Source: an uncultured virus (IMG/VR IMGVR_UViG_3300030098_005893) (Duplodnaviria > Heunggongvirae > Uroviricota > Caudoviricetes). Taken from it: DNA of 20,000 nucleotides. Below the pieces are notes generated by a model. It was not told the origin of the DNA, ran no database searches, and saw only the letters and a list, made by a program, of their open reading frames with translations. Shown one piece after another: positions 1 to 19,851 of the stretch. Both the position numbers and the translations under genes were made by a program. The stretch is from the IMG/VR virus record IMGVR_UViG_3300030098_005893, positions 44,944 to 64,943 of that record; one strand, 5' to 3'. Position 1 is the first letter of the stretch. Every line of letters starts with the position of its first letter.

Positions 1-1122
1 CCGGAACTCGGGGAAAGCCCGGGGCACGAAAAGGTAAACGCTGAAGACGACAACAAGAAAATAGACACGGGGCTAGAGGGAGAGCCAGTTGTCGAAATTG
101 CCGAGGTTTACATTCATTTTGACGCAGATGAAGACGGAGTTCAGGAGGACATCGTCATTATGCTGGATAAGAAAAATCGCAGGCCATTGTTCTATGACTA
201 TGTTGCAAACAGGACCCCTGATGGGCGTAGGCCATTTAATGTCACCCGGGTAAACCGAGTAGAGGGCCGCTGGCACGGGATCGGCACCATGGAGGTGTTC
301 CAGCCATTGCAGGAAGTAGTGGATCTACTGGTCAACAGATGGAACCACTCCCAATCCCGCTCCGGAAATGTAATCTTCTGGAACCCTGAGCTTACTTTAG
401 AGGGAGAAGAAAACCCTCATTTAGAACTTAACGGGGGTAGGACATACACCCCCAAAGGAAACATCGACCCGGAGACTATCCTCAAAGTCATTCCGCTGTA
501 TGACGTTAAGGGCCGGGAAATCTACAAAGAGATCGAGTTCTTCATGCAGGTTGCAATTAACATGAGCGGAGTGTCTCATGTAAATGATGCCGCCATGCTT
601 GGAATGGACACAGCCAAGCTAGCCACCGGGGTCAAGAACATCGAGAGATCCGGGCAGGAAATGTTCTCGATATACCTAAGTCAGTTGCAAGACGGATTAG
701 AGGACCTGCTCAAGCAGTTCTGCGTATACACCCTAGCTTACCTAGATGTGCGAGAGGCGTTTTTGTATACAGAGGACGAGGCCGCCCAAATGTTGCAATT
801 TGGGCCCGAAAACGTCGATAAGCAGCTAGATATGGATGTTCGCCTAGAGATGACGAGATACAAGAATGAGCAGGAACTTGTTCAGGCGCAACAGGCTAGC
901 GCCAAGGTTATCGAGTTTTATTCCCTTCCCCCAGAATTACAGGTTCGCACTTCCCAGCTTTACAGGCAGATGCTAAAGGCAATGCAGGTTTCTCATGTGG
1001 ACGAGATTATCCAGCCCGGCTTTCAGATTCCCCCACAAGGCACTCCCTCCGGGGGGAGCGGGAATCCTCAGGCCATAAACACGCAGGATAACATGCCCGG
1101 ACAGCAGCCGCCTGTAGTATGA
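1..1122 (+). CDS. Portal protein, P22/podovirus-like, 5'-truncated
   Basis: Frame 1 is open from base 1, upstream of the listed ATG at 160. It contains EVYIHFDADEDGVQE, RPF...WHGIG and a TATG-like motif (AKLATGV), ends in a Q/P-rich tail, and lies upstream of scaffold and capsid genes. Confidence 0.8.
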   Translation, partial: PELGESPGHEKVNAEDDNKKIDTGLEGEPVVEIAEVYIHFDADEDGVQEDIVIMLDKKNRRPLFYDYVANRTPDGRRPFNVTRVNRVEGRWHGIGTMEVFQPLQEVVDLLVNRWNHSQSRSGNVIFWNPELTLEGEENPHLELNGGRTYTPKGNIDPETILKVIPLYDVKGREIYKEIEFFMQVAINMSGVSHVNDAAMLGMDTAKLATGVKNIERSGQEMFSIYLSQLQDGLEDLLKQFCVYTLAYLDVREAFLYTEDEAAQMLQFGPENVDKQLDMDVRLEMTRYKNEQELVQAQQASAKVIEFYSLPPELQVRTSQLYRQMLKAMQVSHVDEIIQPGFQIPPQGTPSGGSGNPQAINTQDNMPGQQPPVV

Positions 1123-1406
1123 GCATTGACAAGGAAAAGCAAGAGTATGACCGGGCCCAGAAGGTGGGCGAAAGAGTCGAGAGAATGTGCAGGGAAGAGG
1201 GGTGGAGTGACCACTTTATCCCTATGATCCAGAAAAGGAGGGATGAGGCGCAGTCTATCGTAAACGACCCAGACAGTGATCAGCTAACCACCCAGCTAAA
1301 CAGAGGGGTCATAAAGGTCTGCGACGAGGTCTTGGGATACAGGGAATACAGCGAGGCCCGAGCCGGGAAGATTATGAGGTCCGCTGTTGCCGCCAAGATG
1401 CGCTAG
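1119..1406 (+). CDS. Small helical protein following the portal (hypothetical)
   Basis: 95 aa with an ATGA overlap with the portal stop. A small ORF in this position is common in podovirus head modules. Confidence 0.7.
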   Translation: MSIDKEKQEYDRAQKVGERVERMCREEGWSDHFIPMIQKRRDEAQSIVNDPDSDQLTTQLNRGVIKVCDEVLGYREYSEARAGKIMRSAVAAKMR

Positions 1407-2398
1407 TCAAAAGCGGTTTCAGTGGACAGGGCAACGGCCCCAATTCCTGACTCTACCGCGTAGTCCCTGAACCTTTGTCTGGGGGAACACCGGAAACGCA
1501 CATTGGTGATCCGGAAATCTCCGAGAGATGGATAATCCCACAAAAAGGCTTGGCCAAGACTCAAGGCGTCAGACCCGGTGGCCTCCCAGCTCCCGCTGCC
1601 CATCTTGGTGTATTCATCTGCGCCCTCCACTCTAAACTCTACATCCCAATGGACCTCCATCATTGGGCTAAACACGCTAGGCCATGGAAGATTTACCCTG
1701 TAAACAAATGGCAATGGGTCCCTGTAGCCCTTTTGAATAGTGTAATCCCCTACATATGTGGTCCCACCATGGGAGCCGTTCACGTTGACGTTTGCAATTT
1801 GCAAAAACTGGGTGTCAGATACAGACGCAACATATGTTGTGGTGCTGCCGATTGAGTCAAAGGTGGTTTGACTGTGGTTTTCAGTTGCAGGCGTCCCCGA
1901 TGAGTAGGTGAGGAGCCCGGTCCCATTGGAGGAATATCCTTCTTCCATGTCCTGAACCGCGCCTACCACGCCCCAAGTTCCAGACCTTGCCCCATTGGTC
2001 TCCGATCCAGAGCTAACTTTGATGGCCTCAGGGTAGGTGGGGTTGTCCAATGTGCCCAAAGTCCTCATCGCGTCCGGACTAAAGATGTATTGATCATAAT
2101 CAATCACATCTGTCTTGGTGTGGACAGAGGCCGCCCCCCCAGAGGGAGTCGTAGTAACGGTCCCATTATGATGGACTGGGTTTACATAAGTCAGCCAAAG
2201 CATACGAAACCCGCTCGGGGGCATGGCGTTGACTATCGAGGGGTCAAACCCCGCCGGGCTGGCCTGAAAGCCAAGATACAGGCCATTGGTCTGCTCTATG
2301 TGAAATTCCGGAGCAGGGCACTCTAACTCCGCACAGCACACGCATTGCTGGTCTGGGAACTTCTCAGTGCTTGCTCTCCCGTATACTTCGTAAGACAT
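1403..2398 (-). CDS. Hypothetical protein with N-terminal Cys cluster (CVCCAELECP) and S/T/G-rich beta-type body
   Basis: 331-aa ORF coupled to the upstream minus-strand ORF by a TGATG overlap at 2398. It fills the gap between plus-strand genes exactly. Confidence 0.7.
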   Translation of the reverse strand: MSYEVYGRASTEKFPDQQCVCCAELECPAPEFHIEQTNGLYLGFQASPAGFDPSIVNAMPPSGFRMLWLTYVNPVHHNGTVTTTPSGGAASVHTKTDVIDYDQYIFSPDAMRTLGTLDNPTYPEAIKVSSGSETNGARSGTWGVVGAVQDMEEGYSSNGTGLLTYSSGTPATENHSQTTFDSIGSTTTYVASVSDTQFLQIANVNVNGSHGGTTYVGDYTIQKGYRDPLPFVYRVNLPWPSVFSPMMEVHWDVEFRVEGADEYTKMGSGSWEATGSDALSLGQAFLWDYPSLGDFRITNVRFRCSPRQRFRDYAVESGIGAVALSTETAFD

Positions 2399-3099
2399 CA
2401 GGACCTAAAGTAATGTGCCGTGGCTCTATATGCGTCCAGAAGGCATATCTGGAAGGTGACCGCCCCGCACCCCTCGGTGTTCCAAACCAAATCCCCGTTG
2501 ATGCTCTCAGACCAGCTACCCAAGGGGGCGTATATGAACCCTGTAGGCTGGGAGGCGGATAACTCGCTATCTACAGGAGTTGATGGCCCGTTTTCCAGAA
2601 TTGGGGGCCCTGTGGCGCTCCATCTTCCAGTGAGATATGTCGTATCTCCAGAGGAATCGGTCTCCATGGTTATTTCCAGCTTCACATAAAGGCTGCTGGT
2701 GTGGGGGTCAAAGGTGGTGCTTTCTCCCCCTATTGTTGTGTGAGCCGTAACAAAATCGCTATCTACATAGTTTACCGTTCCCTGTTGCAAATATCTCTTA
2801 TCGGAATCTGACGGGTCGGTGAGCAATGTCCCCAAGGAGCATGTCGTTGAAACTTCCTGTTTCCCTGTTCTCCTGACCAAGCAAACCCTCTTAAACCCAT
2901 TAGCATCAACGAGTTCCACCTCTTCAAACATTGCTAGATACATCAAAAGAGACCTCAACTTATCTATTCCTTCATTGGTGGTGTTGGCGTTTTGGGCAAA
3001 TCGCTCTCCAATATCCAGCTCGTCAGCCTCCATTCCCGGGGGTGGAGGGAACAGCTTGGGGAAGGTGAAATCAGATGACGGGATTACTGGTGTAGACAC
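2398..3099 (-). CDS. Hypothetical protein, possibly virion-associated
   Basis: 233-aa ORF with a GTG start, divergent from the scaffold gene across a short AT-rich spacer. Confidence 0.7.
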   Translation of the reverse strand: MSTPVIPSSDFTFPKLFPPPPGMEADELDIGERFAQNANTTNEGIDKLRSLLMYLAMFEEVELVDANGFKRVCLVRRTGKQEVSTTCSLGTLLTDPSDSDKRYLQQGTVNYVDSDFVTAHTTIGGESTTFDPHTSSLYVKLEITMETDSSGDTTYLTGRWSATGPPILENGPSTPVDSELSASQPTGFIYAPLGSWSESINGDLVWNTEGCGAVTFQICLLDAYRATAHYFRS

Positions 3100-3152
3100 A
3101 ATTGCAATTTAATTCTTGCAAAGGATCAAATAAAGCCCAAAATCCCGGGATA
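3100..3152. promoter_or_regulatory. Divergent promoter region; plus-strand TTGCAA-N16-CAAAAT
   Basis: TTGCAA at 3116-3121, CAAAAT at 3138-3143 and ATG at 3153. The palindrome AATTGCAATT (3100-3109) abuts the minus-strand GTG start. Confidence 0.5.
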
Positions 3153-4442
3153 ATGAGTGAGGCAGACGCCCATTCGGGACAAAATACAGCAGTTGAGGAG
3201 GCAGACGCCCCAGACACTGAAAGCATCCAAGAAGATACACCCGAGGTCGGAAATAACGATCTGGGGGGTTCGGGCGAGGTGGATGGACAGCAGGAAGCTG
3301 CTGAACAAGCCACGCCGTCTATGGCAGACAGGATATCTGAAGCTGGGGACATAGCTGAATACGAGGCTTTAATGTCTGAGATTGAGCAAAACCCCAACCT
3401 CTTGCAAGAACTTGACCCAAATGAAGAGAGTTCTGAAGAAACGGCTACGAATGAGGAGGAGGCGCAGGCCCCTCCGGAGGGAGAGCCAGAGCAACGAGAA
3501 GAGCAACCCGTTGAGCAAGAGCAAGTTGCAGAGCAAAGTCAGCCAGACGAAGCCGGAGACGTAGTAGATGAGGGGGACAAAATCCCCCAATTCCGATTGC
3601 GTCCAACAGAGCAAGTGGATGCTGAGGCATTGCGAATAATGAAGGCCGCAGACGCCGCTGATGCACCTATAAACCTTGAACAGGCGCTTAGTATTGCAAA
3701 ACAGCGGTTAGGTATTGAAGAGAGACCGACAGCCAAAATTGAGCCAGTTGAAAACGACACTCAATACTCCGAAGAGGAGGAGGCAGAGGAGGAAGACCCG
3801 ATATCTGATGTAACGTATGCTGAGGCCAAACAGGAACTAAAGGACCTTCGCAAAAAGCATAGCCAAGCACTCCGTGACGGCGACCTTGACGAGGCCGCAG
3901 ACGTAATGGATCAGCTTGGTGAAACTGAAGAGCTTGTTGAATTGTTGTCTGTTCGTGAAGAACAAGAAGCGACAGCGGCAGTAAACGAGCATGATCATGC
4001 TTTTGATTCCTCAGTTGCAAAAGCAAACGAGCTTTACCCGGATTTCGGGAATGAAGGCTCAGACTTTTACGCTAGAGCAGCAGAGATCGACGCGGCCCTG
4101 CGGGATACTGAAGACAATCGCTACTTCGATGCTAATAAACCGCTTCTGATTGCCCAAATGGTAGCAAAGGAGCTGAATATAGCTCCAAACACGGGAGGGC
4201 CAGCCAAGGAGGCCCCCCAGCAGAAGCAAAAAGCTGCGCCTCAGCAACAGTCACCCTCTTCGCCCCAGCCCCCAAGGACCGAAAAGCCCGGCCAACTACC
4301 CGCAGCCAGTGGAGCTTCACGCACTGCTGGCGTCCAAACCGGACAAGCGGCTACACTTGCTGATCAAGTGGCGAATATATCCAACCCTGATGACTTTGAC
4401 GAATTAGCCGAACAAGTCTTCCGGTCTGGCATTGCTGATTGA
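3153..4442 (+). CDS. Capsid scaffolding protein (acidic, helical)
   Basis: Very E/D/Q-rich and low complexity, with a P/Q linker and a short C-terminal helix, directly upstream of the capsid gene. ATG 3153 is preferred to the TTG at 3102. Confidence 0.7.
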   Translation: MSEADAHSGQNTAVEEADAPDTESIQEDTPEVGNNDLGGSGEVDGQQEAAEQATPSMADRISEAGDIAEYEALMSEIEQNPNLLQELDPNEESSEETATNEEEAQAPPEGEPEQREEQPVEQEQVAEQSQPDEAGDVVDEGDKIPQFRLRPTEQVDAEALRIMKAADAADAPINLEQALSIAKQRLGIEERPTAKIEPVENDTQYSEEEEAEEEDPISDVTYAEAKQELKDLRKKHSQALRDGDLDEAADVMDQLGETEELVELLSVREEQEATAAVNEHDHAFDSSVAKANELYPDFGNEGSDFYARAAEIDAALRDTEDNRYFDANKPLLIAQMVAKELNIAPNTGGPAKEAPQQKQKAAPQQQSPSSPQPPRTEKPGQLPAASGASRTAGVQTGQAATLADQVANISNPDDFDELAEQVFRSGIAD

Positions 4443-4497: not shown

Positions 4498-6027
4498 ATG
4501 GCATTCCATACTTCCAATGTTACTGGTCAGGGAATCGGCAACGCCCTTTCCGCTGACCCCGCAAACGCATTTGGTAACGCTGGGGCAGTCCGCGAACTTT
4601 GGCGCAAAGGAGTTGAGGTCTATGAACAGACCGCAGACTTCTTTGCTCCTTTCGAGGGCGGCAACGACAGCATTATCCAAACCGTTACCGACACGACCAA
4701 AGGTCGCGGTCAGAAAATTACGTTCACCACCATGGCTGGTCTCTACAATGAGCCCAAGCACGGAGACGAGCTTTTTGATGACGGTGATGCTTTCGAGTCG
4801 ATCAAGATCAATTCCGCAACCCTGTCCGTGGACTTCATGCGCCACGGCGTTCGTTATACCGAACGAGCTGAAGAGTTCATGGGAATGCGCGGCGAAATCG
4901 CCGTAGGCATCCCCCGCGAGCTTGGCAAGTGGATGGGCCGCAACAAGAGTGAGAAGCTGTTTATGAGCTTCTTGCACCACGGCGCAGGCGCAAACCAAAT
5001 TATTGCAAACAGCAAGGCCAGCGCGGACGATCTGTTTACTGCTGACACCCTTGATTGGGACGGCATCGTCTCCGCTCAGACGCAGCTCTCCCGCCTTGGC
5101 GGAAGCCCTGCTAAATTGGGCCGGGATCAGAACGGTAACGCCATTCATCGCTACTGCTCCGTTGCAACCACTGACGCTCTGTTCTCTCTTGAGCAGGACG
5201 CTGATTACAAGGATGCACACGAAGAGGGTGGGCCAAACGCCTACTCCAACCAGTTGTTTACGGGTGGCTACTCCGATGTCCGGGGTAATATCATCAAGAA
5301 ATACAATCCCATCGACCATGACGGATACGGTGCGATTGCTTCTCCGCTGAACCCCAAGGCAGAGCTTGGATGCTCGACCGTCGATGGGTTTACCAACAAC
5401 ACCACCACTGGTGTTGCGGCAACCAAAATCGCTGGCGGCGGATCTGCAACTGCTGGGGCTCTTACGGCTCCCGCTTACTTCAAATACTTCCCGCTCTACG
5501 CGTTCAAGTTCCTTGCAACGGACACCCTGTCTCTTGCGGCCAGCTTGTATGGAAGTGGGTCGTTCTATGTAGCGGTTGTAAACCACCCCAATGCGGCCAC
5601 AGACCCGAACAAGATTGGCTTCTACTCAGTTAACGCCAATGACGGGAACCTGTTGACCGTGAACGACAAGCATGAGTCGGGAGACGCCAACAACGCCTTT
5701 GGCTCCTTTCCCGCTTTCGACAGCGATATCCACACCAACACCCACGATGCTGGAACAGCCAGCATCTACCTTGTGAACCAGCACGGTGTGCCTTACGGCC
5801 ACACTCTGTTCATGGGTAAGCAGGCTGCTCGTCGCGCATACGGCAAGTATCGCAACCAGCGTTCCGAAGACTCCCATGAGGGCGGCTTCGTGAAGGACAT
5901 CTTCGTGACCTCTGTCTTCGGGCAGGAGCCAGTGCAGGATGCTGCTGGGCGCAGGCCGGGATACCTTATCCTGACACACGCACTGCAATACGCTGGAGTT
6001 CCGTTCCCGACAGTCACCACTGCTTAA
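4498..6027 (+). CDS. Major capsid protein, N4-gp56/DUF4043-like
   Basis: 509 aa. The N-terminal pattern LW...FF...IQTVTDTTKGRGQKITF...GDE matches this family. It has C-ending codon bias, follows the scaffold and is followed by a terminator. Confidence 0.8.
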   Translation: MAFHTSNVTGQGIGNALSADPANAFGNAGAVRELWRKGVEVYEQTADFFAPFEGGNDSIIQTVTDTTKGRGQKITFTTMAGLYNEPKHGDELFDDGDAFESIKINSATLSVDFMRHGVRYTERAEEFMGMRGEIAVGIPRELGKWMGRNKSEKLFMSFLHHGAGANQIIANSKASADDLFTADTLDWDGIVSAQTQLSRLGGSPAKLGRDQNGNAIHRYCSVATTDALFSLEQDADYKDAHEEGGPNAYSNQLFTGGYSDVRGNIIKKYNPIDHDGYGAIASPLNPKAELGCSTVDGFTNNTTTGVAATKIAGGGSATAGALTAPAYFKYFPLYAFKFLATDTLSLAASLYGSGSFYVAVVNHPNAATDPNKIGFYSVNANDGNLLTVNDKHESGDANNAFGSFPAFDSDIHTNTHDAGTASIYLVNQHGVPYGHTLFMGKQAARRAYGKYRNQRSEDSHEGGFVKDIFVTSVFGQEPVQDAAGRRPGYLILTHALQYAGVPFPTVTTA

Positions 6028-6068: not shown

Positions 6069-6109
6069 GGGGGCCCTGAGTTGCAATTCTTGCAACCGGG
6101 GCCCCTTTT
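6069..6109 (+). terminator. Intrinsic terminator after the capsid gene
   Basis: GGGGCCC-TGA-GTTGCAA-TTC-TTGCAAC-CG-GGGCCCC stem-loop followed by TTTT. Confidence 0.7.
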
Positions 6110-6456: not shown

Positions 6457-7221
6457 ATGACTCTTAAAGAGCTTAGAGACAACGTGTTGCGGGTCCTCTG
6501 GATGGAGGGAGCTGGGACGATTCCTGACTATATTTACGAGGATGCCACCACGGCCATCAATTCTGCGTTGCAACTCATGCACCAGAGCCCTCTGGACTAT
6601 TTCCGCAAAGAGGAGGGGACGCTATACTATTCTGCGGGAACATCATCGGCAAACCTCAACACTCTGTATGGAGCAAACGAGCTTATTGGGCCCGTTTGGA
6701 TCGAGGCAGAGAACAACAGAGAGCTTCATAGGATCACCGATGAGTCTGAGTTTAATCAATTCTTCCCAAGGTTTTATGGGAAAACTGAAGCTCAGGCCGT
6801 AGCTGACGGGGTTCCCGCTCCAAGTTACTACTTCGTCAAAACTCGCAGAGAAGCAGCCGAAGACTCTGGAAGGGACTCGTCTGGTGCGTATATCGAGATC
6901 AAGCCGACCCCAACAGCAGACGTAAGCATCAGTCTAATTTACGCCAGAAAGGCTGCCGTTTTTGAAACAAGCTACATCAAGGCTCTGTCAGGATCAGAGG
7001 TAACTCCCGTCCCGGCAGACGCGGTAGAGACAATCCTTCTGCCGCTTGCTAGAATGTATGCAATGAGGTCTCACTTTTTCTTTGAGAAAGACAAGATCCC
7101 CATGTTTGAGCAGGACTCAGCCAGAGCGATGCAATCGTTGCAAGTCTCTGACCCCGAAATGGGGACAAAGAGCCACATGGCTGAGCAGCTTAGGAAACAA
7201 TTTGCGTCTGAAGAAGAATGA
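6457..7221 (+). CDS. Head-tail adaptor/connector-like protein 1
   Basis: MTLKELRDNV...AINSAL N-terminal helices, a P-x-P beta turn (IKPTPT) and VPADAVETILLPLA; located after the capsid gene. Confidence 0.6.
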   Translation: MTLKELRDNVLRVLWMEGAGTIPDYIYEDATTAINSALQLMHQSPLDYFRKEEGTLYYSAGTSSANLNTLYGANELIGPVWIEAENNRELHRITDESEFNQFFPRFYGKTEAQAVADGVPAPSYYFVKTRREAAEDSGRDSSGAYIEIKPTPTADVSISLIYARKAAVFETSYIKALSGSEVTPVPADAVETILLPLARMYAMRSHFFFEKDKIPMFEQDSARAMQSLQVSDPEMGTKSHMAEQLRKQFASEEE

Positions 7222-8153
7222 CTGTTCAAGAATTAGCTCAAAGGCTTGCAAGATGGACAGCCAGTAAGACGCTCTCGCAAATGAGCGTTGAGGATCGTTT
7301 GATCCTGCTGGATTGTGTCAACTCCGCTGTTTTTAACTGGTTTATTACGGCCCCGGAAAACCTGAGGATGACCACGGTCTCGCACCTAATAAGGGCGAAG
7401 GAGACCATCAGCTTTACCGCCACCAACGGAGGAAACGACATGACTGGCGCTTCGTTGCAAGACTATCATCTAGGAGCGGCTTTGGAGATTGCAGGGGAGA
7501 AAAACATGAATGAAATCGTTTCGGTTTCTGGGACTCCTAAAATGCTTAACCAGTTTCGCGGATCAACTGGCTCCGTGTCCGCAAGTGTCCACTTTGACAC
7601 TATTATGCTCACGGATCACAGCGTCAACAGGCTGGTAAGCCATCCTAGAGTGCTTGATACGGGAGTTACCCTGTTCAGGGACGAAGACGGCCTTCGATTC
7701 GTTGGACCGGAGAGAAGGATGAGGGCGTTTTCCGGAATACTTGGGACCACAGCAGCCTCAAGTTCTGTGCAAACCTTTGGAGACCCCACAAGGTATGTTC
7801 TAGAAAACACCGGGGTATCCCAGAAAGACGAAGCCAGACTAATGGTTAGGCTCGACCCCATTCCGGACAAGGAGATGACTGTGGTGTTCGATGCCGTGCT
7901 GGACCCGCCTTCTCATGATTTGACAGATATGGACGGGAGTGTGGCCGTTGCCGTTCCGGATCAATATGTTTTGCCTCATGTTCTTCCGTTGGCGCTAAGC
8001 GACTTGGTTATGACCCCGATCTGGGAGGGGTCAAAAGAGGAGAGAGACGCCACCATCCAGAGGGGGATATCTGCTATTGCCGCAATAAATAGGGCAATGC
8101 AGCCCAACAGGGGATCTCCTTCCAATTATGTGAGAACCAGACCCGGATATTAA
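7218..8153 (+). CDS. Head-tail adaptor/connector-like protein 2 (paralogue)
   Basis: MTVQELAQRL...CVNSAV, LDPIPD and VPDQYVLPHVLPLA mirror the preceding gene; ATGA overlap. Confidence 0.55.
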   Translation: MTVQELAQRLARWTASKTLSQMSVEDRLILLDCVNSAVFNWFITAPENLRMTTVSHLIRAKETISFTATNGGNDMTGASLQDYHLGAALEIAGEKNMNEIVSVSGTPKMLNQFRGSTGSVSASVHFDTIMLTDHSVNRLVSHPRVLDTGVTLFRDEDGLRFVGPERRMRAFSGILGTTAASSSVQTFGDPTRYVLENTGVSQKDEARLMVRLDPIPDKEMTVVFDAVLDPPSHDLTDMDGSVAVAVPDQYVLPHVLPLALSDLVMTPIWEGSKEERDATIQRGISAIAAINRAMQPNRGSPSNYVRTRPGY

Positions 8154-8877: not shown

Positions 8878-8889
8878 TTGCAATACTAT
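8861..8889 (+). promoter_or_regulatory. Possible promoter TTGTTA-N17-TACTAT overlapping an ATTGCAAT palindrome
   Basis: Hexamers at 8861-8866 and 8884-8889 with TTGCAA at 8878-8883, upstream of the fibre genes. Confidence 0.35.
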
Positions 8890-12113: not shown

Positions 12114-14153
12114 ATGAGAATATTCCCCAGACTGGGCGTCTCTGATGCTCGCAGCGCCTCAGACCCCTATTATTTTAGTAAGGGGTTACTTGTTTTAGAC
12201 GCCAATGAAGGTGTGCTAAAGACGGGCGGCTCTGCGGCGGGATATCTGGATACTGTGGCAGCGTGGCAGAATAAGGCGATTGGCCCGAAGAACTTCTTGT
12301 TCATGCCGGGAACGGTTTACTCTTATGCTTATGTTTCCCATAATAGCAATTTGAATGCGTTCGATGACTTTTGTTTTGAAGTAAATGATGTTCTTATGCC
12401 CGATTGGACCCCATCCAATCACACCCCTTTAATTTCCAAAACGTATCCATCGTATGGTTACGCATCATGGGAGTTCGGTGTAGATACAGATGGTAAGCTC
12501 AGAATTGATCTTTCTTTCGACGGGACCAATGTCACCACCTACAAATCAACCGTAGCCACAGGTGTTTCTGATGGAGGAACGTGTTCAGTTAGGGCGATAA
12601 GAAACAGCAGCACTATATCCTTTGAGATCGACACCGGGTCAGGGTTTGCTGCGCTAGGCACCACAGTGGCAGGGGTAAGCACGACACTCTATGACTCCGT
12701 ATATTCTAACCTAGAGATTGGCAATAAAGAAGGAGGCTCATACTCCTACCCTCTTAAAGGCCAAGTAGGCGGGGCCAAGGTCTACAACACAGCAACTCCA
12801 GATTCGTCTTCTCCCGTTTTCTCTGTTGATTTTTCTTTGGCTACTCGGACAGACAGATCCTTTGCCGTTACAACCGGGCAAACCATTTACTTGCAAGGCG
12901 ATGGTGTTGCTATACAGCAGGCTACTGCTTCTGATGCTGTCCAGACAACCTACTCCTATCGCGGTAAGTATCTAACCCCAAGTGCTAATAATTTGCCTGT
13001 GGGTCACTTTCCCGGCGTTGGCAGTAATTTCTACAGTGTCCCAGATGCCGCAAATCTGGATGGGTGGGGAGATTTTACGATAGAAGCAAAGGGAGTCACC
13101 CTCACAGATTGGACTCCTTCGTCTAATATGGGTCTTGTGTCGAAGTGGACTTCTTCTGGAGCCCAGAGGTCTTGGAGGTTTGACTTAAAGACTAATGGCA
13201 AACTCATTCTCTACCTCTCCTTTAATGGCTCCAGCAATACGGGTTATGAGTCCACATCTTCTACTGGTTTGTCGAACGATTCTACCGCAGACCTTATGGT
13301 AATGAGGAACGGAACTGATGTTAAGTTTTACGTTAATGGTGTGCAGTTAGGGACCGACAAAACCGCAGTCACAACTTCTGTTGCCTCGAAAAGCGCACCA
13401 GTTAGGCTGGGCATGGCCTACAATACTACAGGATCGCCGCTGACAGGCAAATACACTAGGGCTAGGGTGTGGAACTCTGCCGTTGCTAATCCCGCAAACC
13501 CAACAGAAAGCCCCATCTTAGACGTAAATTTTGAGGTGGATGCCACCCACGGAGATTCGTCTTTCACCGCGACTACAGGACAAACTGTTACCGTAAACAC
13601 TTCCGGGGATAACCCTTGTAGCGTCATAGGCTATCCTGTTATTCGTTTTGATGGCGTTGACAACTACTTGTCCGGGCATTTTATCCCTTCCCTAACTAAA
13701 GGAAGGCTGTTTGTGGTCGGCACCATTCTAGGAGGAGGAGGGGAATCCCATGCGAGAGTTTTTAATGTAACCAAGGATACTGACTCTGTTACTGCTAGCA
13801 CTACAGGTGCTGGGCTAATTATCAGGGAAGTAGCAACATCTGATTGGTGGTCATACCATAATGGTTCTGCTGCTGTTGAGCAGAGTGGCAAATACACGGG
13901 TCGAATTCTTGCACAGGTAGACTTCTCCGCTTCTTCCCAAAGCTCCAAAACTAATGACGCCAACCTTCAGACGGCCACAGCCGATTGGTCAGGATTGAAC
14001 TCAAATAAATACGCTATTGCAGGAGGCGCTGATAACGGAAACTGGAACTCGGCAATCGACGTAGAGTTCGTAGCCCTATACCCGGACAGCATGAGCGACT
14101 CAGAGGCCGCTTCAGTGGTGGCCATCTTAAACGAACGATTCAAAATATACTAA
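12114..14153 (+). CDS. LamG/concanavalin-A-like multi-domain fibre, probable head (vertex) fibre
   Basis: Two ~200-aa internal repeats (DWTPS...SK...SW.F....GKL...LSF.G...TTGQT), VKFYVNGVQLG and IRFDGVDNYL motifs; follows the spike base gene. Confidence 0.7.
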   Translation: MRIFPRLGVSDARSASDPYYFSKGLLVLDANEGVLKTGGSAAGYLDTVAAWQNKAIGPKNFLFMPGTVYSYAYVSHNSNLNAFDDFCFEVNDVLMPDWTPSNHTPLISKTYPSYGYASWEFGVDTDGKLRIDLSFDGTNVTTYKSTVATGVSDGGTCSVRAIRNSSTISFEIDTGSGFAALGTTVAGVSTTLYDSVYSNLEIGNKEGGSYSYPLKGQVGGAKVYNTATPDSSSPVFSVDFSLATRTDRSFAVTTGQTIYLQGDGVAIQQATASDAVQTTYSYRGKYLTPSANNLPVGHFPGVGSNFYSVPDAANLDGWGDFTIEAKGVTLTDWTPSSNMGLVSKWTSSGAQRSWRFDLKTNGKLILYLSFNGSSNTGYESTSSTGLSNDSTADLMVMRNGTDVKFYVNGVQLGTDKTAVTTSVASKSAPVRLGMAYNTTGSPLTGKYTRARVWNSAVANPANPTESPILDVNFEVDATHGDSSFTATTGQTVTVNTSGDNPCSVIGYPVIRFDGVDNYLSGHFIPSLTKGRLFVVGTILGGGGESHARVFNVTKDTDSVTASTTGAGLIIREVATSDWWSYHNGSAAVEQSGKYTGRILAQVDFSASSQSSKTNDANLQTATADWSGLNSNKYAIAGGADNGNWNSAIDVEFVALYPDSMSDSEAASVVAILNERFKIY

Positions 14154-14481: not shown

Positions 14482-15498
14482 ATGAAAAAAAGCGACAATA
14501 GCATAAGGCGGGACATTGTTTTCGCTATTATTGGAATAGCCATTTTCTACGCCGTTCTGGGCGTTGCAAACTGGCTTGATGGGGCCTTTGGCCTTATCGA
14601 AGCGTTCACGTTCGTGGACATCGCGTCAACGGTAACGAAAACCCTCGTTGCCAGCGCATTAGCGTTTGCCCTGCTCAAGATTGGGTTTAGGCATACGCTT
14701 GGAAGAGACATAGGCAAAACCTTTGATGAGGGCTGGGATGAAACTCCGTCCCCAAATAAGGCAAGGCTTATTATTATCGCGGTGCTGGTGTTCTTCGCCA
14801 GCATTATGCTTTCCGGAGCCAGCGCCTCTCTTAGAGACCTCTCCGTGGAAAGAAGCGGTGTAATCCCCGGCCTCTCGCTGCCAGTCAGCGACGAGGCCCG
14901 GGACCTCATCGTTGGATACGAGGTGGGAGGGAAAATCTATTACCAGAAGTATCTCTCGGGGCCCACATGGCCCGGGGGCGCAAGCGGAGTGACCATAGGG
15001 TTTGGCTACGATCTAGGGTATAACAACGCAACCCAGATTCGCAAAGATTGGGGAGGTCTTCTTTCTTCGTCTGAGGTGAACGCGCTCATTAGCGTATCAG
15101 GAAGAAAGGGGGGTGCCGGGAAATACGCCCTAGCTTCAGTAAAGAACAGGGTGAGGGTTTCATGGGACGAGGCCCAAGAGGTGTTTGATGGCTCCACTTT
15201 GCCAAGGTTTGCAAAAACAACCCAAACGGCATTTGGGCTGTCTGAAGACAGGCTTCACCCGCACAGCAACGGAGCCCTTGTGTCGATTGTGTTCAACAGG
15301 GGCGCAAGCATGAAGGGCAGCAGAAGAAGGGAGATGGCAAACATCAGGGATCACATAGCGGCAGGTTACGCCGGAAGGGTCCCCCGGGAAATCAGGTCTA
15401 TGAAGAGGCTGTGGCAGGGACGAGGGCTGGATGGTCTTATTAAGAGAAGGGATGCAGAGGCTGGTCTTTTTGAAAGAGGTCTTAAAATGAGAAACTAA
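14482..15498 (+). CDS. Endolysin (T4-lysozyme/GH24/pesticin-like muramidase) with three N-terminal hydrophobic helices
   Basis: LIVGYE, WPGGASGVTIGFGYDLG, ALVSIVFNRG and GLIKRRDAEAGLF motifs. Residues ~12-115 contain three hydrophobic segments. Confidence 0.85.
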   Translation: MKKSDNSIRRDIVFAIIGIAIFYAVLGVANWLDGAFGLIEAFTFVDIASTVTKTLVASALAFALLKIGFRHTLGRDIGKTFDEGWDETPSPNKARLIIIAVLVFFASIMLSGASASLRDLSVERSGVIPGLSLPVSDEARDLIVGYEVGGKIYYQKYLSGPTWPGGASGVTIGFGYDLGYNNATQIRKDWGGLLSSSEVNALISVSGRKGGAGKYALASVKNRVRVSWDEAQEVFDGSTLPRFAKTTQTAFGLSEDRLHPHSNGALVSIVFNRGASMKGSRRREMANIRDHIAAGYAGRVPREIRSMKRLWQGRGLDGLIKRRDAEAGLFERGLKMRN

Positions 15499-15522: not shown

Positions 15523-15966
15523 ATGGACAGCGATCTGAGAAAAAGAATAGAAAAGGCGGCACACAAGCACCCGACACTTACTAATGGCAAAATAGCCCAC
15601 AATTGCAATTGCAAGGTAGCCGATGTTGAGAAAGTAAGAACCGACCTTGGTCTTGAGGTGGTTCATTCTGGCCCAAGAGGGAAAAGGAAACCTGCCTCAA
15701 GGGGAAAGGGTCTTGATCAGTTTCGCGCCAAGCACGATGTGGATCTCATCATCAGGACCAAGGTGATGGAGTATCTATCTGAAGACCATGAGGAGTATTT
15801 TGATGACCATGACTTCCGAGAGATATGCGAGGTTCCTGTTACAGGCTGGAGAAGGCACTCCGACTCGCCAGACTTTGATGAATACAGGTTGAGGAAGGGA
15901 AGCCTTAATGTGTGGGGGCCTAAGCACATAATCCTGCAAATGAAAAAGATCCTCGGGATCATGTGA
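15523..15966 (+). CDS. Hypothetical protein with N-terminal helix-turn-helix-like motif
   Basis: HPTLTNGKIAHNCNCKVADVEKVR resembles the P..SN..IA......V..VR HTH pattern, followed by a basic linker. Confidence 0.6.
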   Translation: MDSDLRKRIEKAAHKHPTLTNGKIAHNCNCKVADVEKVRTDLGLEVVHSGPRGKRKPASRGKGLDQFRAKHDVDLIIRTKVMEYLSEDHEEYFDDHDFREICEVPVTGWRRHSDSPDFDEYRLRKGSLNVWGPKHIILQMKKILGIM

Positions 15967-16838
15967 AGATGCCTAGAAAAAAAGGAAAATCTATTGACGA
16001 GTTTGCCAAGGGTCACGCCAGCAAGATCCTGTCTCTTCGGGATCAGTTGGAGACGCTTGCAAATGAGCGAGCCCTGCAAAGGATCTCCCTTCCCAAAAAG
16101 GCCCCCGCGTTTAAGTTCGGGGTTTTGAGCTGCACCCACTTTGGGTCAATCTACGAGGAAGTTGCAATGACTCGGGCCATTTACGAGTGGTTTGAGCAGG
16201 AGGGTATTAAAACCGTCTACCATTGCGGGGACATGACCGAGGGCGTCCAGATGAGGAAAGGGCATGAGCATGAAGTCCATAAGCACGGGGCTGACGCCCA
16301 GATAGATTGGACGGTTGAGCATTACCCATACATCAAAGGGATTAAGACTCACTTGATCTCTGGAAACCATGACGAGGCCCACATGAAGAATGGCGGCACA
16401 GATGTCTGCGCGAGAATCGCGGAAAAGAGAGAGGACATCAATTATCTAGGGTCAGATGCGGCCCGGTGGGTTGTGGAGAGAAAGGGTGAAAAGGACATTA
16501 GGATAGACATGCTACACCCCGGAGGGGGGAGTAGCTACGCTCTAAGCTACAAGCCTCAAAAGATAATCGAGCAGATTGAGTCGGGCCAAAAGCCAGACAT
16601 CCTGCTTATCGGGCACTTCCACAAAGCGTTTACGTTGCCAGCCTATAGGGGCGTTGCTGCGGTGCTTGCTGGATGCACTCAGAGGCAGTCGCAATTTATG
16701 ATGCGAAATGGCTTAGCCGCACATACAGGGGCCCACATAATCGAGTGCAGGGCCTTTGAAGACCAAGTAATGTTCTCGTCTTGCTGGAGGGGATTCAAGC
16801 CCCCCAAGGCAGATATTCCCGTTATTAACGATGAATGA
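15963..16838 (+). CDS. Calcineurin-like metallophosphoesterase
   Basis: Motifs S(C)TH, GDMTEG, GNHD, HPGGG and GHFH in canonical order. The start is GTG 15963 or ATG 15969. Confidence 0.85.
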   Translation: MKMPRKKGKSIDEFAKGHASKILSLRDQLETLANERALQRISLPKKAPAFKFGVLSCTHFGSIYEEVAMTRAIYEWFEQEGIKTVYHCGDMTEGVQMRKGHEHEVHKHGADAQIDWTVEHYPYIKGIKTHLISGNHDEAHMKNGGTDVCARIAEKREDINYLGSDAARWVVERKGEKDIRIDMLHPGGGSSYALSYKPQKIIEQIESGQKPDILLIGHFHKAFTLPAYRGVAAVLAGCTQRQSQFMMRNGLAAHTGAHIIECRAFEDQVMFSSCWRGFKPPKADIPVINDE

Positions 16839-17494
16839 CCGCTGTGCATATAGACCTTTACACAACACTGACCGCTTTAGGGGCGGCAGCCTCCGCTGTG
16901 CTGGCGATTTGGTCGCTAACAACAAGGGGGAGGTCCGCGTGGAAAGAATGGTGGATAAGAAGAAGGCAGAGGAGGCAAATGCCGCAGTTGCTTCTGTCTA
17001 TAAAAGAAGAGCTTCAGAAAGTCGCGGATAGGCAGGAGTTTTTCACTGCTGAGCTGAAGACAAATGGAGGAACCTCGCTAAAAGATGAGGTAAGGCTGTT
17101 GGTTAGCGAGAGGCTGATGGAGTTGCAAGAGGCTCCATACCCGGCCTTTAGATGCACATCAAACGGGGAGGCTATCTTCGTCAACAGGGCCTATGAGACC
17201 TTGGTTGATGACGACGACTCCAAGTTGGTTGGGCTTGGCTGGCAGTCATTCATTTACGACAGCGAAGAAGGGGACACTTATTATCAAAGGTGGTTGCAAG
17301 TTGCGAAAACGGGCTCGCACTTTGCAGGAAACCTGAAATACAAAGATTCTCATGGAAATTACCGGGGAGAATGGTTTGTCCGCATTGTGCCCCTTGGCCC
17401 ATATAAAGCACACAATCAGATATGGGGAGGAAGAGTGTTTCCTGAGGACGAAGTAGCAGAAGAAATAGCAAAGGAATACGGATGGGCGAGATAG
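16835..17494 (+). CDS. Membrane protein with N-terminal TM helix, coiled coil and C-terminal PAS domain
   Basis: TM TLTALGAAASAVLAIWSL, an Arg-rich stop-transfer segment, and PAS signature PAFRCTSNGEAIFVNRAY...LVGLGWQSFI...YKDSHGNYRGEWFVRIVP. Confidence 0.75.
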   Translation: MTAVHIDLYTTLTALGAAASAVLAIWSLTTRGRSAWKEWWIRRRQRRQMPQLLLSIKEELQKVADRQEFFTAELKTNGGTSLKDEVRLLVSERLMELQEAPYPAFRCTSNGEAIFVNRAYETLVDDDDSKLVGLGWQSFIYDSEEGDTYYQRWLQVAKTGSHFAGNLKYKDSHGNYRGEWFVRIVPLGPYKAHNQIWGGRVFPEDEVAEEIAKEYGWAR

Positions 17495-19329
17495 AGGTGC
17501 AACTTACCGACGATCAGGCAGACGAGCTTCTTCGTGCTGCTTGCATGGAAAATGAAGACGCTTGGGTCGAGCAGTTTGGCAAGATCCTTAAAAAGGACGG
17601 GGCTGTAGAGACTCCCGTCCTTAACTATTTGCAAGAGCAGGTCTGTGACGCAATAAGATGGTGCAGAGAGAATGAATATCCATGTAGGATAATTATCCTC
17701 AAGCCACGCCAGAAAGGGTCCTCTACTGTTACCACGGCCTGTCTATACCACATGTTGCAGAGGAGGCAGTCCAACGGACTAATTATTGGCGGCGAATTTA
17801 GTCAAACGGATAACTTGTGGAAAATTACCAGAAGGTATTCGGATTACGACAAAATGAAGTGGCCCCACGAAAGACCAAGGATCACAAACGAAAGAGGGGC
17901 CTTTGGTAACGGCTCCATTCTTGAAAAGGAGACGGCGCAGGACTCAGAAGCCGGAAGATCAGGAACTTTTCACTTCGTCCTTGCAACGGAAATTGGACGC
18001 TGGAGAGACACCCCGGCCAGAAACTCCGCTGAAATCCTGACCGGGGTGATGGCCTGTGTTCCCGACCTTCCAGACACAGCGGTGGTTCTTGAATCAACCG
18101 CGCAAGGCCCGGCAGGGGTTTTCTATGACCGCTGGAATGACGCTGACGACTGGGAGCATGTCCAGACCCTTGCAAAAGGCGAGTGGAAAGGGCGGTGGAT
18201 AAGGATATTTGCTCCTTGGTATGCTTTCGAGGACGCCAAAGACAACCTTACTGCCGTAGAGGTTGAGGACCTCAGGCGATCTTTAACCCCCACGGAAAGG
18301 GAGCTTTTGGCGGATTACAAGTGCGTGGACAAATCGGGTAACGAACACACTATCACGATTAGCCATATTAGCTGGAGAAGAAAGATTCTGGAAAGCGAGT
18401 GCGATGGAGATGAGACCAAGTTCGACAGGGAGTTCCCCACCACCTCGCAACACGCCTTCAGAGCGTCTGCTAGGACGAGGTTCTCCCGTGATGGCCTCGA
18501 CTGGCAAAGGACCCATGCGACCGCTCAGAAGCCAATCTACGGCATTCCTGAGCTATCCGAGAGCGGCAAGCTGGTGAATTTCAGGCAATCTTCTTTGGAG
18601 GAGGCCATTGTCCATTGTTTTGAGAGGCCCCGAGAGGGATACTATTACCTAGTAAGCGCGGACTTGATGACCGGGCAGTCACAAGTTGGAGGCAAAGATC
18701 CCGATTGCCATTCGGTTTTGGTTTGGAGAAAAGGTTTTTTTGATCGTGATCGCGGGTGGATTCCGCCGTCTATGGTTGCAAGATTAAAGCCTGAGTGCAG
18801 GTGGGATATAGATGTTTTGGCAGAGTGGACATACAGGCTGGCCCACTGGTATGGGAAGTGCCTTCTAGTGTCTGAGATAAACTGCGACCGGGGGTTCGTG
18901 GAGCTTATCAGGGCCAAAGGAGACATCCCCATTTACCAAAGGGAGATATTTAACCATGTGAACCAAAAGAGGTCCAAGGCCTTTGGGTGGCACACCTCCA
19001 GTTCCACAAGATTGCAAATTGAGGAAACAATGGCCCGAAGCATCAGGGGATACGGGGAAGACGGAGGGGGTGTTCACCTCAACTGCTTACACCTCGTCTC
19101 AGAATGCGAGACGTTTTGTGTGAATGACAAGGGGAAGGCTGAGGCCTTGAGGGGGGCCCACGATGATGACGTAATGTCTGCGGGAATTGGGCTATGCGTT
19201 ATCGAACAGGCTACCAGATACAGAAACAGGTATGACGACATCCCCCTGCCGCGTGACCTGAAAAAAATAGAAAATAGGCGAAAAAGAGGCATTGCCACTG
19301 GACACCTTGGAAGAAGGGGATTCTACTGA
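17482..19329 (+). CDS. terL: Terminase large subunit
   Basis: Walker A IILKPRQKGSST, Walker B FVLATE, coupling motif ESTAQG, and nuclease acidic motifs SAD and HDDDVMS. Confidence 0.92.
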   Translation: MGEIEVQLTDDQADELLRAACMENEDAWVEQFGKILKKDGAVETPVLNYLQEQVCDAIRWCRENEYPCRIIILKPRQKGSSTVTTACLYHMLQRRQSNGLIIGGEFSQTDNLWKITRRYSDYDKMKWPHERPRITNERGAFGNGSILEKETAQDSEAGRSGTFHFVLATEIGRWRDTPARNSAEILTGVMACVPDLPDTAVVLESTAQGPAGVFYDRWNDADDWEHVQTLAKGEWKGRWIRIFAPWYAFEDAKDNLTAVEVEDLRRSLTPTERELLADYKCVDKSGNEHTITISHISWRRKILESECDGDETKFDREFPTTSQHAFRASARTRFSRDGLDWQRTHATAQKPIYGIPELSESGKLVNFRQSSLEEAIVHCFERPREGYYYLVSADLMTGQSQVGGKDPDCHSVLVWRKGFFDRDRGWIPPSMVARLKPECRWDIDVLAEWTYRLAHWYGKCLLVSEINCDRGFVELIRAKGDIPIYQREIFNHVNQKRSKAFGWHTSSSTRLQIEETMARSIRGYGEDGGGVHLNCLHLVSECETFCVNDKGKAEALRGAHDDDVMSAGIGLCVIEQATRYRNRYDDIPLPRDLKKIENRRKRGIATGHLGRRGFY

Positions 19330-19403: not shown

Positions 19404-19437
19404 AGCCCCTCGGAGAGTTGCAACTCCGGGGGGTTTT
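19404..19437 (+). terminator. Intrinsic terminator after terL
   Basis: AGCCCCTCGGAG-AGTTGCAA-CTCCGGGGGGTT stem-loop followed by a T tract. Confidence 0.7.
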
Positions 19438-19445
19438 GCTATGAT
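19418..19445 (+). promoter_or_regulatory. Promoter TTGCAA-N16-TATGAT with extended -10 TG
   Basis: -35 at 19418-19423, TGc-TATGAT ending at 19445, GTG start at 19458. Confidence 0.65.
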
Positions 19446-19457
19446 TAGGAACGTGCC

Positions 19458-19778
19458 GTGAACATCCCCAAAGGAGTAACAATTGCAGGAGTTTTTGTGA
19501 AAATCATTAGGGAGGACCTTAGAGATGAGGACCACCACCCTAAGGGGTATTTTGGCTATTACTCCCATGAGCGCAGGGTCATAGCGATTGACAAGGGGCT
19601 AACCCCTGCTGCGGCCCGGGATACAATTCGGCACGAAATGATCCACGCCGCTTTGGCCATGTCTGGTCTGGATCATCTTGAGCATTTTGAGGAGGAGGCA
19701 GTCGTGCGGTGCATGGAGGAAATCTTCTTCCCGGCCTACGAAAGGTTTTTGCGGAACCTAAACAGGAAAAAGACTTGA
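19458..19778 (+). CDS. Small HExxH zinc-metallopeptidase-like protein
   Basis: GYFGYY...IAID...DTIRHEMIHA...EEEAVV pattern of minimal zincin (ImmA/IrrE-like) phage proteins. Confidence 0.7.
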   Translation: MNIPKGVTIAGVFVKIIREDLRDEDHHPKGYFGYYSHERRVIAIDKGLTPAAARDTIRHEMIHAALAMSGLDHLEHFEEEAVVRCMEEIFFPAYERFLRNLNRKKT

Positions 19779-19823
19779 TATTGCAGCTTGCAAAATAATT
19801 ACAGCGAAGCGCCTAATCGCTTC

Positions 19824-19851
19824 TTGCAAACTTGCAAGAAGTCCTCATAAT
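19824..19851 (+). promoter_or_regulatory. Promoter TTGCAA-N16-CATAAT within the inverted repeat CTTCTTGCAA-AC-TTGCAAGAAG
   Basis: -35 at 19824-19829, -10 at 19846-19851, ATG at 19861; perfect 10-bp inverted repeat at 19820-19841. Confidence 0.6.

Follow-up and report, generated by a model that had tools for sequence, protein, structure and literature searches.

For three decades, the highly iterated palindromes of cyanobacteria have posed an unsolved problem. HIP1 (GCGATCGC), the cyanobacterial word, is a hyper-abundant genomic palindrome that lies inside genes in all reading frames, occurs in an excess that codon usage does not explain, and has a function that is still debated. HIP1 sites are reported to be conserved between related genomes above control palindromes (PMC5861425), and one abstract describes recognition of the word by two methylases (PMC13756078). 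The present analysis concerns a different palindrome, TTGCAA, in an uncultured virus of the Caudoviricetes. The DNA analyzed, referred to as the window, is a stretch of 20,000 nucleotides corresponding to bases 44,944-64,943 of one 64,943-base virus record (IMG/VR IMGVR_UViG_3300030098_005893). A first-pass annotation of the window had noted that TTGCAA is strongly enriched, and had proposed a HIP-like element, a methylation mark or a dispersed binding site. We found that TTGCAA is a real HIP-like iterated palindrome in this phage, which is held by a selection-like force.

All of the general properties of HIP1 listed above (hyper-abundance, a palindromic form, location inside genes in all frames, an excess unexplained by codon usage, and a debated function) are shared by TTGCAA, and its conservation was examined by the same type of test. 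On the other hand, TTGCAA has only 6 bp with AT-rich ends and no CpG, and it is found in a virus rather than in cells. Moreover, no cognate methyltransferase was recognized in the phage genome, unlike the two methylases reported for HIP1 in the abstract of PMC13756078. Thus, TTGCAA works like a HIP but is not a member of the HIP1 family. The word "phage" does not occur in the two main HIP1 papers (PMC5861425 and PMC4390886), and no report of genome-wide TTGCAA enrichment or of HIP-like words in phages was found in the papers searched.

Two other groups of genome-wide words show a partial resemblance. Chi and DNA uptake sequences are likewise short, exact words that are kept dense across genomes by selection while individual sites turn over; they are, however, asymmetric and orientation-biased and have known readers, whereas TTGCAA is palindromic. 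The stoperators of Cluster A mycobacteriophages also occur in many copies throughout the genome, both within and between genes, but they are asymmetric, transcription-oriented sites of ~13 bp, present in a few dozen copies and bound by a known repressor, whereas TTGCAA is a symmetric 6-bp word with 171 copies and no flanking consensus.

Abundance and Codon Context of TTGCAA

Since the first ~98 bases of the record recur at its end and its completeness is rated 100%, it represents a complete, circularly assembled phage genome. This genome has a size of ~64.8 kb and a G+C content of 52%, and 60 genes were called that cover 95% of it. In the window, exactly 49 copies of TTGCAA were counted, which agrees with the first-pass figure of about 49, and every coordinate listed there was confirmed. 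Composition predicts 4.5 copies, corresponding to an enrichment of ~11-fold where about 10-fold had been given, and 200 dinucleotide-preserving shuffles yielded 7.25 copies (sd 2.64, largest 15), none of which reached 49. The complete genome contains 171 copies versus 14.3 expected by composition, or approximately one per 380 bases (2.6 per kb). TTGCAA is the commonest hexamer of the genome, and the runner-up has 69 copies.

The excess of TTGCAA is not due to codon usage. When synonymous codons were shuffled within each gene (300 shuffles), the in-gene count of 161 was compared with an expectation of 36.7±5.3 (maximum 56), and the resulting z of ~22 was the highest among all hexamers. A similar result was obtained for the 23 genes lying wholly inside the window (40 versus 11.3±2.6, maximum 19; 300 shuffles). 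Genes contain 159 of the 171 genomic sites, distributed over all three phases: 97 as xTT GCA Axx, 46 as TTG CAA and 16 as xxT TGC AAx. In the window the respective numbers are 24, 15 and 5, with five further intergenic sites. The first-pass examples of each phase proved correct (TTG CAA at 685, Leu-Gln; GTT GCA A at 551, Val-Ala-Ile; AAT TGC AA at 15603, Asn-Cys-Asn), from which it had been concluded there that no single codon pair lies behind the word.

An observed/expected ratio near 1, after control for 4- and 5-mer and codon composition, had been named in the first-pass annotation as the outcome that would speak against the enrichment. The ratio was 2.6-3.1 under a 3rd-order Markov null, and 3.5 (window) and 4.4 (genome) under codon shuffles, but only 1.2 under a 4th-order null (49 versus 40.6 in the window and 171 versus 144 in the genome). 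The last null is circular because three quarters of its conditioning 5-mers lie within TTGCAA itself (171 of 232 occurrences of TTGCA and 171 of 221 of TGCAA), and it thereby absorbs the signal.

The preference for TTGCAA is visible wherever the encoded amino acids allow the word. It was found in 97 of 225 tripeptides consisting of Phe, Leu, Ile or Val, then Ala, then a residue whose codon starts with A (17.4 expected), in 42 of 95 Leu-Gln dipeptides (8.6 expected), and in 16 of 19 contexts in which Cys is followed by Lys or Asn (4.3 expected). Ala between a codon ending in TT and one starting with A is written GCA 97 times versus 25 times for the other three codons combined; elsewhere GCA is a minority codon. 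In addition, Leu-Gln itself occurs 95 times versus 58.6 expected, and Gln-Leu 50 times. The protein sequence is therefore also partly bent towards TTGCAA, beyond the silent codon positions.

Conservation, Turnover and Clade-Wide Occurrence

A total of 22 related contigs were found, several of which are near-duplicates of each other, and the relatives are not mutually independent. Conservation of TTGCAA was compared with that of phase-matched hexamers in the aligned stretches. The following four relatives span different degrees of divergence:

L005, ~90% DNA identity: 43/48 sites kept, 32.4 expected from controls
L009, 77% DNA identity: 22/41 sites kept, 10.7 expected from controls
L014, ~71% DNA identity: 8/15 sites kept, 2.1 expected from controls
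L015, ~71% DNA identity: 9/14 sites kept, 2.0 expected from controls

In the three more divergent relatives, conservation was 2-4 times that of the controls. A three-genome comparison (this genome, L005, and L009 as the outgroup) revealed 20 shared sites together with eight apparent gains and five apparent losses on the two tip branches, which implies that the density is held while individual sites turn over.

Enrichment is clade-wide among relatives with a capsid identity of at least 64%, all of which have TTGCAA at 4-13 times the composition expectation, no CCWGG and almost no GTAC. A distant relative (L021; 45% capsid identity, 8.1 kb) contains a single TTGCAA versus 2.0 expected, and its CCWGG content is normal. 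As an unbiased control, 80 viral contigs were chosen by the presence of a small HNH-like protein and not by TTGCAA. Their median observed/expected ratio was 1.0, and 78 of them stayed below 5-fold; the two that reached this level are members of the same clade. The cultured marine phages Syn5 (4 versus 8.9) and HMO-2011 (14 versus 15.1) are also unenriched. Taken together, the force acting on TTGCAA outweighs synonymous and, in part, non-synonymous choice; it also conserves sites and is passed on within the clade. This indicates that, besides avoidance, positive selection for a short palindrome can shape the genomes of phages.

All 49 sites of the window are given below with their codon phase (phase 1, xTT GCA Axx; phase 2, xxT TGC AAx; Leu-Gln, TTG CAA), the encoded residues, the open reading frame (ORF) with its strand, and the fraction of aligned relatives with TTGCAA at the same site ("kept"):

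203..208, phase 1, Val-Ala-Asn, portal ORF 1-1122 (+), kept 3/8
551..556, phase 1, Val-Ala-Ile, portal ORF 1-1122 (+), kept 7/8
685..690, Leu-Gln, portal ORF 1-1122 (+), kept 6/7
793..798, Leu-Gln, portal ORF 1-1122 (+), kept 2/7
1792..1797, phase 1, Ile-Ala-Asn, ORF 1403-2398 (-), kept 3/3, paired with 1799, 7 bases apart
1799..1804, Leu-Gln, ORF 1403-2398 (-), kept 2/3
2785..2790, Leu-Gln, ORF 2398-3099 (-), kept 3/3
3102..3107, called TTG start of ORF 3102-4442 (+), true start possibly downstream, kept 7/7
3116..3121, phase 2, Ser-Cys-Lys, ORF 3102-4442 (+), kept 7/7
3402..3407, Leu-Gln, ORF 3102-4442 (+), kept 2/2
3694..3699, phase 1, Ile-Ala-Lys, ORF 3102-4442 (+), kept 4/4
4015..4020, phase 1, Val-Ala-Lys, ORF 3102-4442 (+), kept 3/6
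5003..5008, phase 1, Ile-Ala-Asn, capsid ORF 4498-6027 (+), kept 2/10
5162..5167, phase 1, Val-Ala-Thr, capsid ORF 4498-6027 (+), kept 9/11
5513..5518, phase 1, Leu-Ala-Thr, capsid ORF 4498-6027 (+), kept 7/10
6081..6086, phase 2, Ser-Cys-Asn, ORF 6067-6450 (+), kept 3/3, paired with 6090
6090..6095, phase 2, Ser-Cys-Asn, ORF 6067-6450 (+), kept 3/3, TANNNT 16-18 bases downstream (one of three such sites)
6568..6573, Leu-Gln, ORF 6457-7221 (+), kept 6/6
7138..7143, Leu-Gln, ORF 6457-7221 (+), kept 3/5
7246..7251, phase 1, Leu-Ala-Arg, ORF 7218-8153 (+), kept 4/5
7455..7460, Leu-Gln, ORF 7218-8153 (+), kept 3/4
8878..8883, intergenic, kept 2/3
9277..9282, phase 1, Val-Ala-Asn, ORF 9165-11090 (+), kept 2/3
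9355..9360, phase 1, Ile-Ala-Thr, ORF 9165-11090 (+), kept 2/3
9556..9561, phase 1, Leu-Ala-Thr, ORF 9165-11090 (+), kept 3/3
9577..9582, phase 1, Val-Ala-Thr, ORF 9165-11090 (+), kept 3/3
10717..10722, phase 1, Phe-Ala-Lys, ORF 9165-11090 (+), kept 2/3
11148..11153, phase 1, Leu-Ala-Ile, ORF 11087-11620 (+), kept 2/2, paired with 11157
11157..11162, phase 1, Ile-Ala-Ser, ORF 11087-11620 (+), kept 2/2
11765..11770, phase 1, Val-Ala-Thr, small ORF 11671-11817 (+), kept 2/2
11988..11993, Leu-Gln, ORF 11835-12101 (+), kept 2/2
12891..12896, Leu-Gln, ORF 12114-14153 (+; Laminin_G_3 protein), no relative aligned
14564..14569, phase 1, Val-Ala-Asn, lysozyme-domain ORF 14482-15498 (+), kept 2/2
15209..15214, phase 1, Phe-Ala-Lys, lysozyme-domain ORF 14482-15498 (+), kept 2/2
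15603..15608, phase 2, Asn-Cys-Asn, ORF 15523-15966 (+), kept 2/2, adjoining 15609 (TTGCAATTGCAA)
15609..15614, phase 2, Asn-Cys-Lys, ORF 15523-15966 (+), kept 2/2
16057..16062, phase 1, Leu-Ala-Asn, phosphoesterase ORF 15963-16838 (+), kept 2/2
16162..16167, phase 1, Val-Ala-Met, phosphoesterase ORF 15963-16838 (+), kept 2/2
17123..17128, Leu-Gln, ORF 16835-17494 (+), kept 2/2
17294..17299, Leu-Gln, ORF 16835-17494 (+), no relative aligned
17629..17634, Leu-Gln, ORF 17482-19329 (+)
17981..17986, phase 1, Leu-Ala-Thr, ORF 17482-19329 (+)
18170..18175, phase 1, Leu-Ala-Lys, ORF 17482-19329 (+)
18776..18781, phase 1, Val-Ala-Arg, ORF 17482-19329 (+)
19012..19017, Leu-Gln, ORF 17482-19329 (+)
19418..19423, intergenic, TATGAT 17 bases later, possibly a real promoter
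19788..19793, intergenic, after ORF 19458-19778
19824..19829, intergenic, paired with 19832, 8 bases apart
19832..19837, intergenic

Exactness of the Word and the Purged Palindrome Background

The enriched unit is the exact hexamer TTGCAA. The eight positions on each side of the sites carry no information, NTGCAA occurs 171 times with T at the first position but only 17, 22 and 11 times with A, C and G, respectively, and the nine classes of one-letter variants all occur at expectation (z from -1.6 to +1.1). Because these classes stay at expectation, the excess is fed by no neighboring word and near-sites are not favored. Every part of the genome contains sites (6-21 per 5 kb), which do not cluster at gene starts beyond artefacts of ORF calling. 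Pairs lying 6-14 bases apart are more frequent than expected (16 versus ~4 by a Poisson estimate).

The same genome has been purged of many restriction-type words and has lost almost all other short palindromes. GTAC (251 expected), CCWGG (144 expected) and GWGCWC are absent throughout, 39 of the 64 hexamer palindromes have no more than two copies, the asymmetric words CACGTC, GCCCGC, GAGCAC and GCACGC are each absent, and CCSGG words are raised in compensation for the purge. Synonymous shuffles in which the purged words were barred yielded just 33-44 copies of TTGCAA in six runs (29-50 in free shuffles) versus the 161 observed, and the excess is therefore no side effect of the purge. Avoidance of restriction sites (palindromes) by virulent phages is described in Rusinov et al. 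2018 (PMC6286503). This genome is an extreme case of such avoidance, whereas TTGCAA runs the opposite way.

A partly overlapping purge was observed in the cultured SAR116 phage Puniceispirillum phage HMO-2011 (L267), in which CCWGG (60 expected) and GATC-containing hexamers are absent, as are GAGCAC, GCACGC, GCCCGC, CCGTCG, CGACGC and AAGCTT, and CTGCAG occurs 29 times versus 9 expected. Six of these words (CCWGG, GAGCAC, GCACGC, GCCCGC, CCGTCG and AAGCTT) are absent from both phages.

Other Lineages and Other Iterated Palindromes

Enrichment of TTGCAA was also found in a protein-unrelated lineage (G316, L404 and L405). G316 (29.6 kb; L381 and L382), which has no tblastn-detectable similarity to this phage, contains 64 copies versus 22.4±3.7 in synonymous shuffles, which makes TTGCAA its top enriched hexamer, and its divergent relative L405 contains 19 versus 2.3. 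CTGCAA/TTGCAG are enriched as well in G316, and the signal is thus less strictly palindromic there. This lineage lacks CCWGG but has normal GTAC, and its gene products include RecT together with a PD-(D/E)XK nuclease, as well as an SU10-type adaptor. Two short contigs, L334 and L304, contain 13 copies each in less than 5 kb. In the latter, a viral contig of 4.6 kb (L304:1-4599), five TTGCAA-N-TTGCAA pairs lie 700-1000 bases apart, an arrangement resembling a single operator pair for each gene.

A second palindrome, TAGCTA, is iterated in the viral contig L466 (1-6825), in which it is the top hexamer (20 copies versus 1.7 in shuffles, ~12-fold) and GTAC is absent. The relation of this contig to the present phage is limited to a 34-37% identical DnaB and a small HNH-like protein, and is otherwise undetectable. 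In a low-GC member of the clade (G006, the contig behind L018), 30 copies of TAGCTA occur in 50 kb in addition to TTGCAA, compared with two of a control word, and in L013 the hybrid words TAGCAA/TTGCTA reach 13 copies within 5.4 kb. Judging from G006 and L013, the favored word may drift towards TWGCWA. TCGCGA is not significantly enriched in L484 (26 versus 21.2).

These cases raise the possibility, which we put forward with caution and consider less likely than not, that every marine phage with a purged palindrome content retains one "private" iterated palindrome (TTGCAA here, TAGCTA in L466, both in G006) as the address word of an undescribed sequence-reading system acting on its entire genome. 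If so, the private palindrome would be the address for, e.g., a self-marking or anti-defense system, or for a genome-organizing protein of shifting specificity; phages would then have a novel type of genome-wide DNA signal, and the unsolved problem of HIP1 could be studied in a tractable model. To our knowledge, no restriction enzyme is known for a small number of hexamer palindromes that include TTGCAA and TAGCTA, which could explain why these two words alone are "safe" to accumulate.

The Putative Reader of TTGCAA and Alternative Explanations

TTGCAA may be understood as a genome-wide, selectively maintained recognition word, the phage counterpart of cyanobacterial HIP1. Proteins of the restriction-modification type characteristically discriminate a 6-bp palindrome in an all-or-none manner, and it is on this basis that we infer the kind of reader involved: presumably a dimeric protein on double-stranded DNA with a specificity of the restriction-modification type, which would recognize the exact palindrome and tolerate no one-letter variant. 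The likeliest candidate would be a methyltransferase-type enzyme, probably of the host because the complete phage genome encodes no recognizable one. We favor a host-encoded reader of this type tentatively, rating it somewhat short of an even chance and ahead of a phage-encoded binding protein, which is followed by a Chi-like signal, a transcription or RNA signal, and a composition artefact. By analogy with HIP1, the benefit to the phage might lie in help with recombination or repair, or in recognition of its genome as "own" DNA. Of the first-pass proposal, the HIP-like behavior holds (a palindrome in all phases with a codon-aware, conserved excess), and the methylation, binding and HIP alternatives are all candidate readings.

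The first-pass annotation had suggested looking for a methyltransferase and for the same enrichment in related phages and candidate hosts; the enrichment is indeed a family trait of the related phages, and none of the 60 proteins of the complete genome matches a methyltransferase family in Pfam or PHROG or contains a [DNS]PP[YFWH] or PCQ+ENV motif. Several observations weigh against a host methyltransferase-type reader. None of 712 sampled bacterial genomes (a thin sample of 199,900) reaches 2.6 TTGCAA per kb, the highest density being ~1.8, in small genomes. Unlike HIP1, which has enriched variants (HIP1*), TTGCAA has no enriched one-letter variants. The regular spacing of HIP1 was also not seen: the index of dispersion in 0.5-4 kb bins is 0.69-0.99, within random scatter, and no periodicity was detected in a 65-kb genome that is too short for the published kilobase-scale test. 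Deamination of 5-methylcytosine combined with very-short-patch repair as the driving force would deplete TTGTAA/TTACAA, which are not depleted (20 versus 22.4 expected). Furthermore, a host methyltransferase paired with a nuclease would make enrichment harmful to the phage, and a phage-encoded reader with a fold outside known families is possible, since a family could be assigned to fewer than half of the 60 proteins.

The strongest rival, which we regard as rather unlikely, is such a phage-encoded protein that would coat, organize, package or shield the genome, with sites co-evolving in the lineage. The trait does track phage phylogeny (present in relatives with at least 64% capsid identity, absent at 45% in L021), individual sites are conserved, and the excess of close pairs is what cooperative binding would produce; the abundance of proteins without known family and the TAGCTA copies of G006, which hint at a drifting specificity, are also consistent with it. 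However, a 6-bp site without tolerated variants is unusual for proteins of the helix-turn-helix type, TTGCAA is also the top hexamer of the protein-unrelated G316 lineage, and the only small protein common to both lineages is unlinked to the trait.

This shared protein consists of 88 residues (contig 530-796; L001:530-796; phmmer E 1.4e-5). It is very basic and contains both an HNH-like D-H...N...N-R motif and the conserved stretch PEQKKRRAxRN; PF13392 was recognized in 4 of 37 homologues, and genes for relatives were found on at least 248 viral contigs. It was rejected as the reader because 78 of the 80 control contigs encoding the family lack enrichment.

Less probable than a phage-encoded binder, and in our view unlikely, is a Chi-like signal for a nuclease-helicase or recombination machine of the host, which would protect linear or concatemeric DNA or aid recombination-dependent replication. 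A density of ~1 per 380 bases with random spread would suit a signal that must be reached quickly wherever the enzyme enters. The complete genome contains no recognizable DNA polymerase or nuclease inhibitor, and, according to a preprint abstract, transformation is made more efficient by HIP1 in a manner that depends on homology and methylation. On the other hand, a palindrome carries no direction, the spacing of TTGCAA is no more even than chance, and no enriched host genome was found among those sampled. The Chi words known so far are rich in G and lack symmetry.

It is more improbable still that TTGCAA is a transcription signal (a -35-like element, operator or stoperator) or acts in mRNA as UUGCAA. 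The word shares four of six letters with the -35 consensus TTGACA, is denser in non-coding (3.9 per kb) than in coding DNA (2.6 per kb), would be carried by every transcript because it is a palindrome, and has a good -10 partner at two intergenic or gene-start sites. Against this, the great majority of sites (159/171) are intragenic, without flanking consensus or clustering at gene starts, and no repressor was identified, so that operator or stoperator features are missing. Of 98 oriented sites in the window, only three have TANNNT 16-18 bases away, about the chance level, which means that most sites do not serve as promoters.

A by-product of composition, of codon or amino-acid usage, or of the loss of ~40 further palindromes, which would require no reader, is very improbable: the 4th-order ratio of just 1.2 that speaks for it is circular (74-77% of the 5-mers lie inside TTGCAA), and although the codon-usage null is already 2.6 times composition (36.7 versus 14.3) and many bacterial genomes are 2-4.4-fold over composition, both free and purge-constrained shuffles fall far below the observed count, one-letter neighbors are undepleted, sites are conserved above controls, and the unbiased viral control has a median of 1.0.

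Whichever reader is involved, a 65-kb phage with 171 sites, graded relatives and a purged palindrome background offers a far smaller system than cyanobacteria for finding the reader and the purpose of an iterated palindrome. Such words also have a bearing on k-mer host prediction, on restriction-avoidance signatures, and on the search for new DNA-reading defense and counter-defense systems.

Search for a Host

Relatives of the capsid were found in none of 185,579 species genomes, and a protein atlas search gave "viruses" as the sole assignment. In the genome sample, the 301 members of a phylum reached via a Vampirovibrio locus had a maximum of ~1.8 TTGCAA per kb (in small genomes), 401 Alphaproteobacteria had a maximum of ~1.5, which holds without G359 and G559, and five whole genomes of Planctomycetota had 0.14-0.31 and are thus not enriched. 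The fetched locus from the Vampirovibrio-linked phylum has 35% G+C, and the checked pieces of the densest genomes have 32-47%. In these pieces TTGCAA is 2.3-4.4 times the composition expectation, which is close to the generic excess predicted for the phage by the codon null (36.7/14.3 = 2.6).

Several host leads were examined. A host shared with G316 was considered, but absence of CCWGG is common (3 of 9 TTGCAA-rich versus 15 of 85 other loci, Fisher p 0.37) and the tetranucleotide similarity (rho 0.52 versus 0.47 for Syn5) is not discriminating; the Pearson version of this similarity is driven by the GTAC zero alone. The SAR116 phage HMO-2011 gave no indication of the host, since the purged words overlap but TTGCAA is unenriched and GTAC normal in that phage. 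The alphaproteobacterial genome G696 is also depleted of GTAC, CACGTC and GAGCAC, yet its tetranucleotide rho is 0.016, and it was rejected as the host.

Some additional features were observed in the bacterial genomes. About half of the sampled genomes of the Vampirovibrio-linked phylum (G011 and similar genomes of ~1.7-2.3 Mb) have 1.0-1.8 TTGCAA per kb versus a few hundred copies of AACGTT. G696, G698 and a few other Alphaproteobacteria have 0-19 copies of AACGTT in 1.4-2.6 Mb, and in the fetched pieces of these genomes GTAC is depleted 13-20-fold and GCGCGC enriched ~10-fold. In Planctomycetota of several orders, tandem (TTGCAAT)3-4 or its complement, often with degenerate heptad flanks, occurs at 15 or more loci (L149, L150, L155, L161, L163, L167, L168, L178, L189, L194, L200, L204, L216, L217 and L219), and such (TTGCAAT)n arrays dominate among the matches listed in a genome scan for TTGCAA-dense DNA. 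These heptads may represent a repeat, or an array of binding sites, that is typical of the phylum.

Gene Content and Origin of the Phage

No match to the genome DNA, the capsid or the untyped ORF 3102-4442 was found in 50,697 phage records, and DnaB had only distant matches there (<40% identity). In the complete genome no tRNA gene was detected, and no DNA polymerase, RNA polymerase, integrase or methyltransferase is recognizable. In the window, 10 N at 11602-11611 (contig 56545-56554) lie within ORF 11087-11620 and may be a scaffold gap. The recognized genes encode an SU10-type portal and adaptor, a capsid protein, a lysozyme-domain protein, a DnaB helicase, a Toprim primase, an SNF2 helicase, and an AAA_5 ATPase with a VWA partner. 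DNA of the phage is present in marine or seawater metagenome runs from seven studies. Upstream of the window, a single ORF of 5,900 residues (contig 26114-43816; L003:615-18317) occupies 27% of the genome and encodes a polyvalent protein with DUF7178, Kinase-PolyVal and ART-PolyVal domains, which combines a kinase and an ADP-ribosyltransferase.

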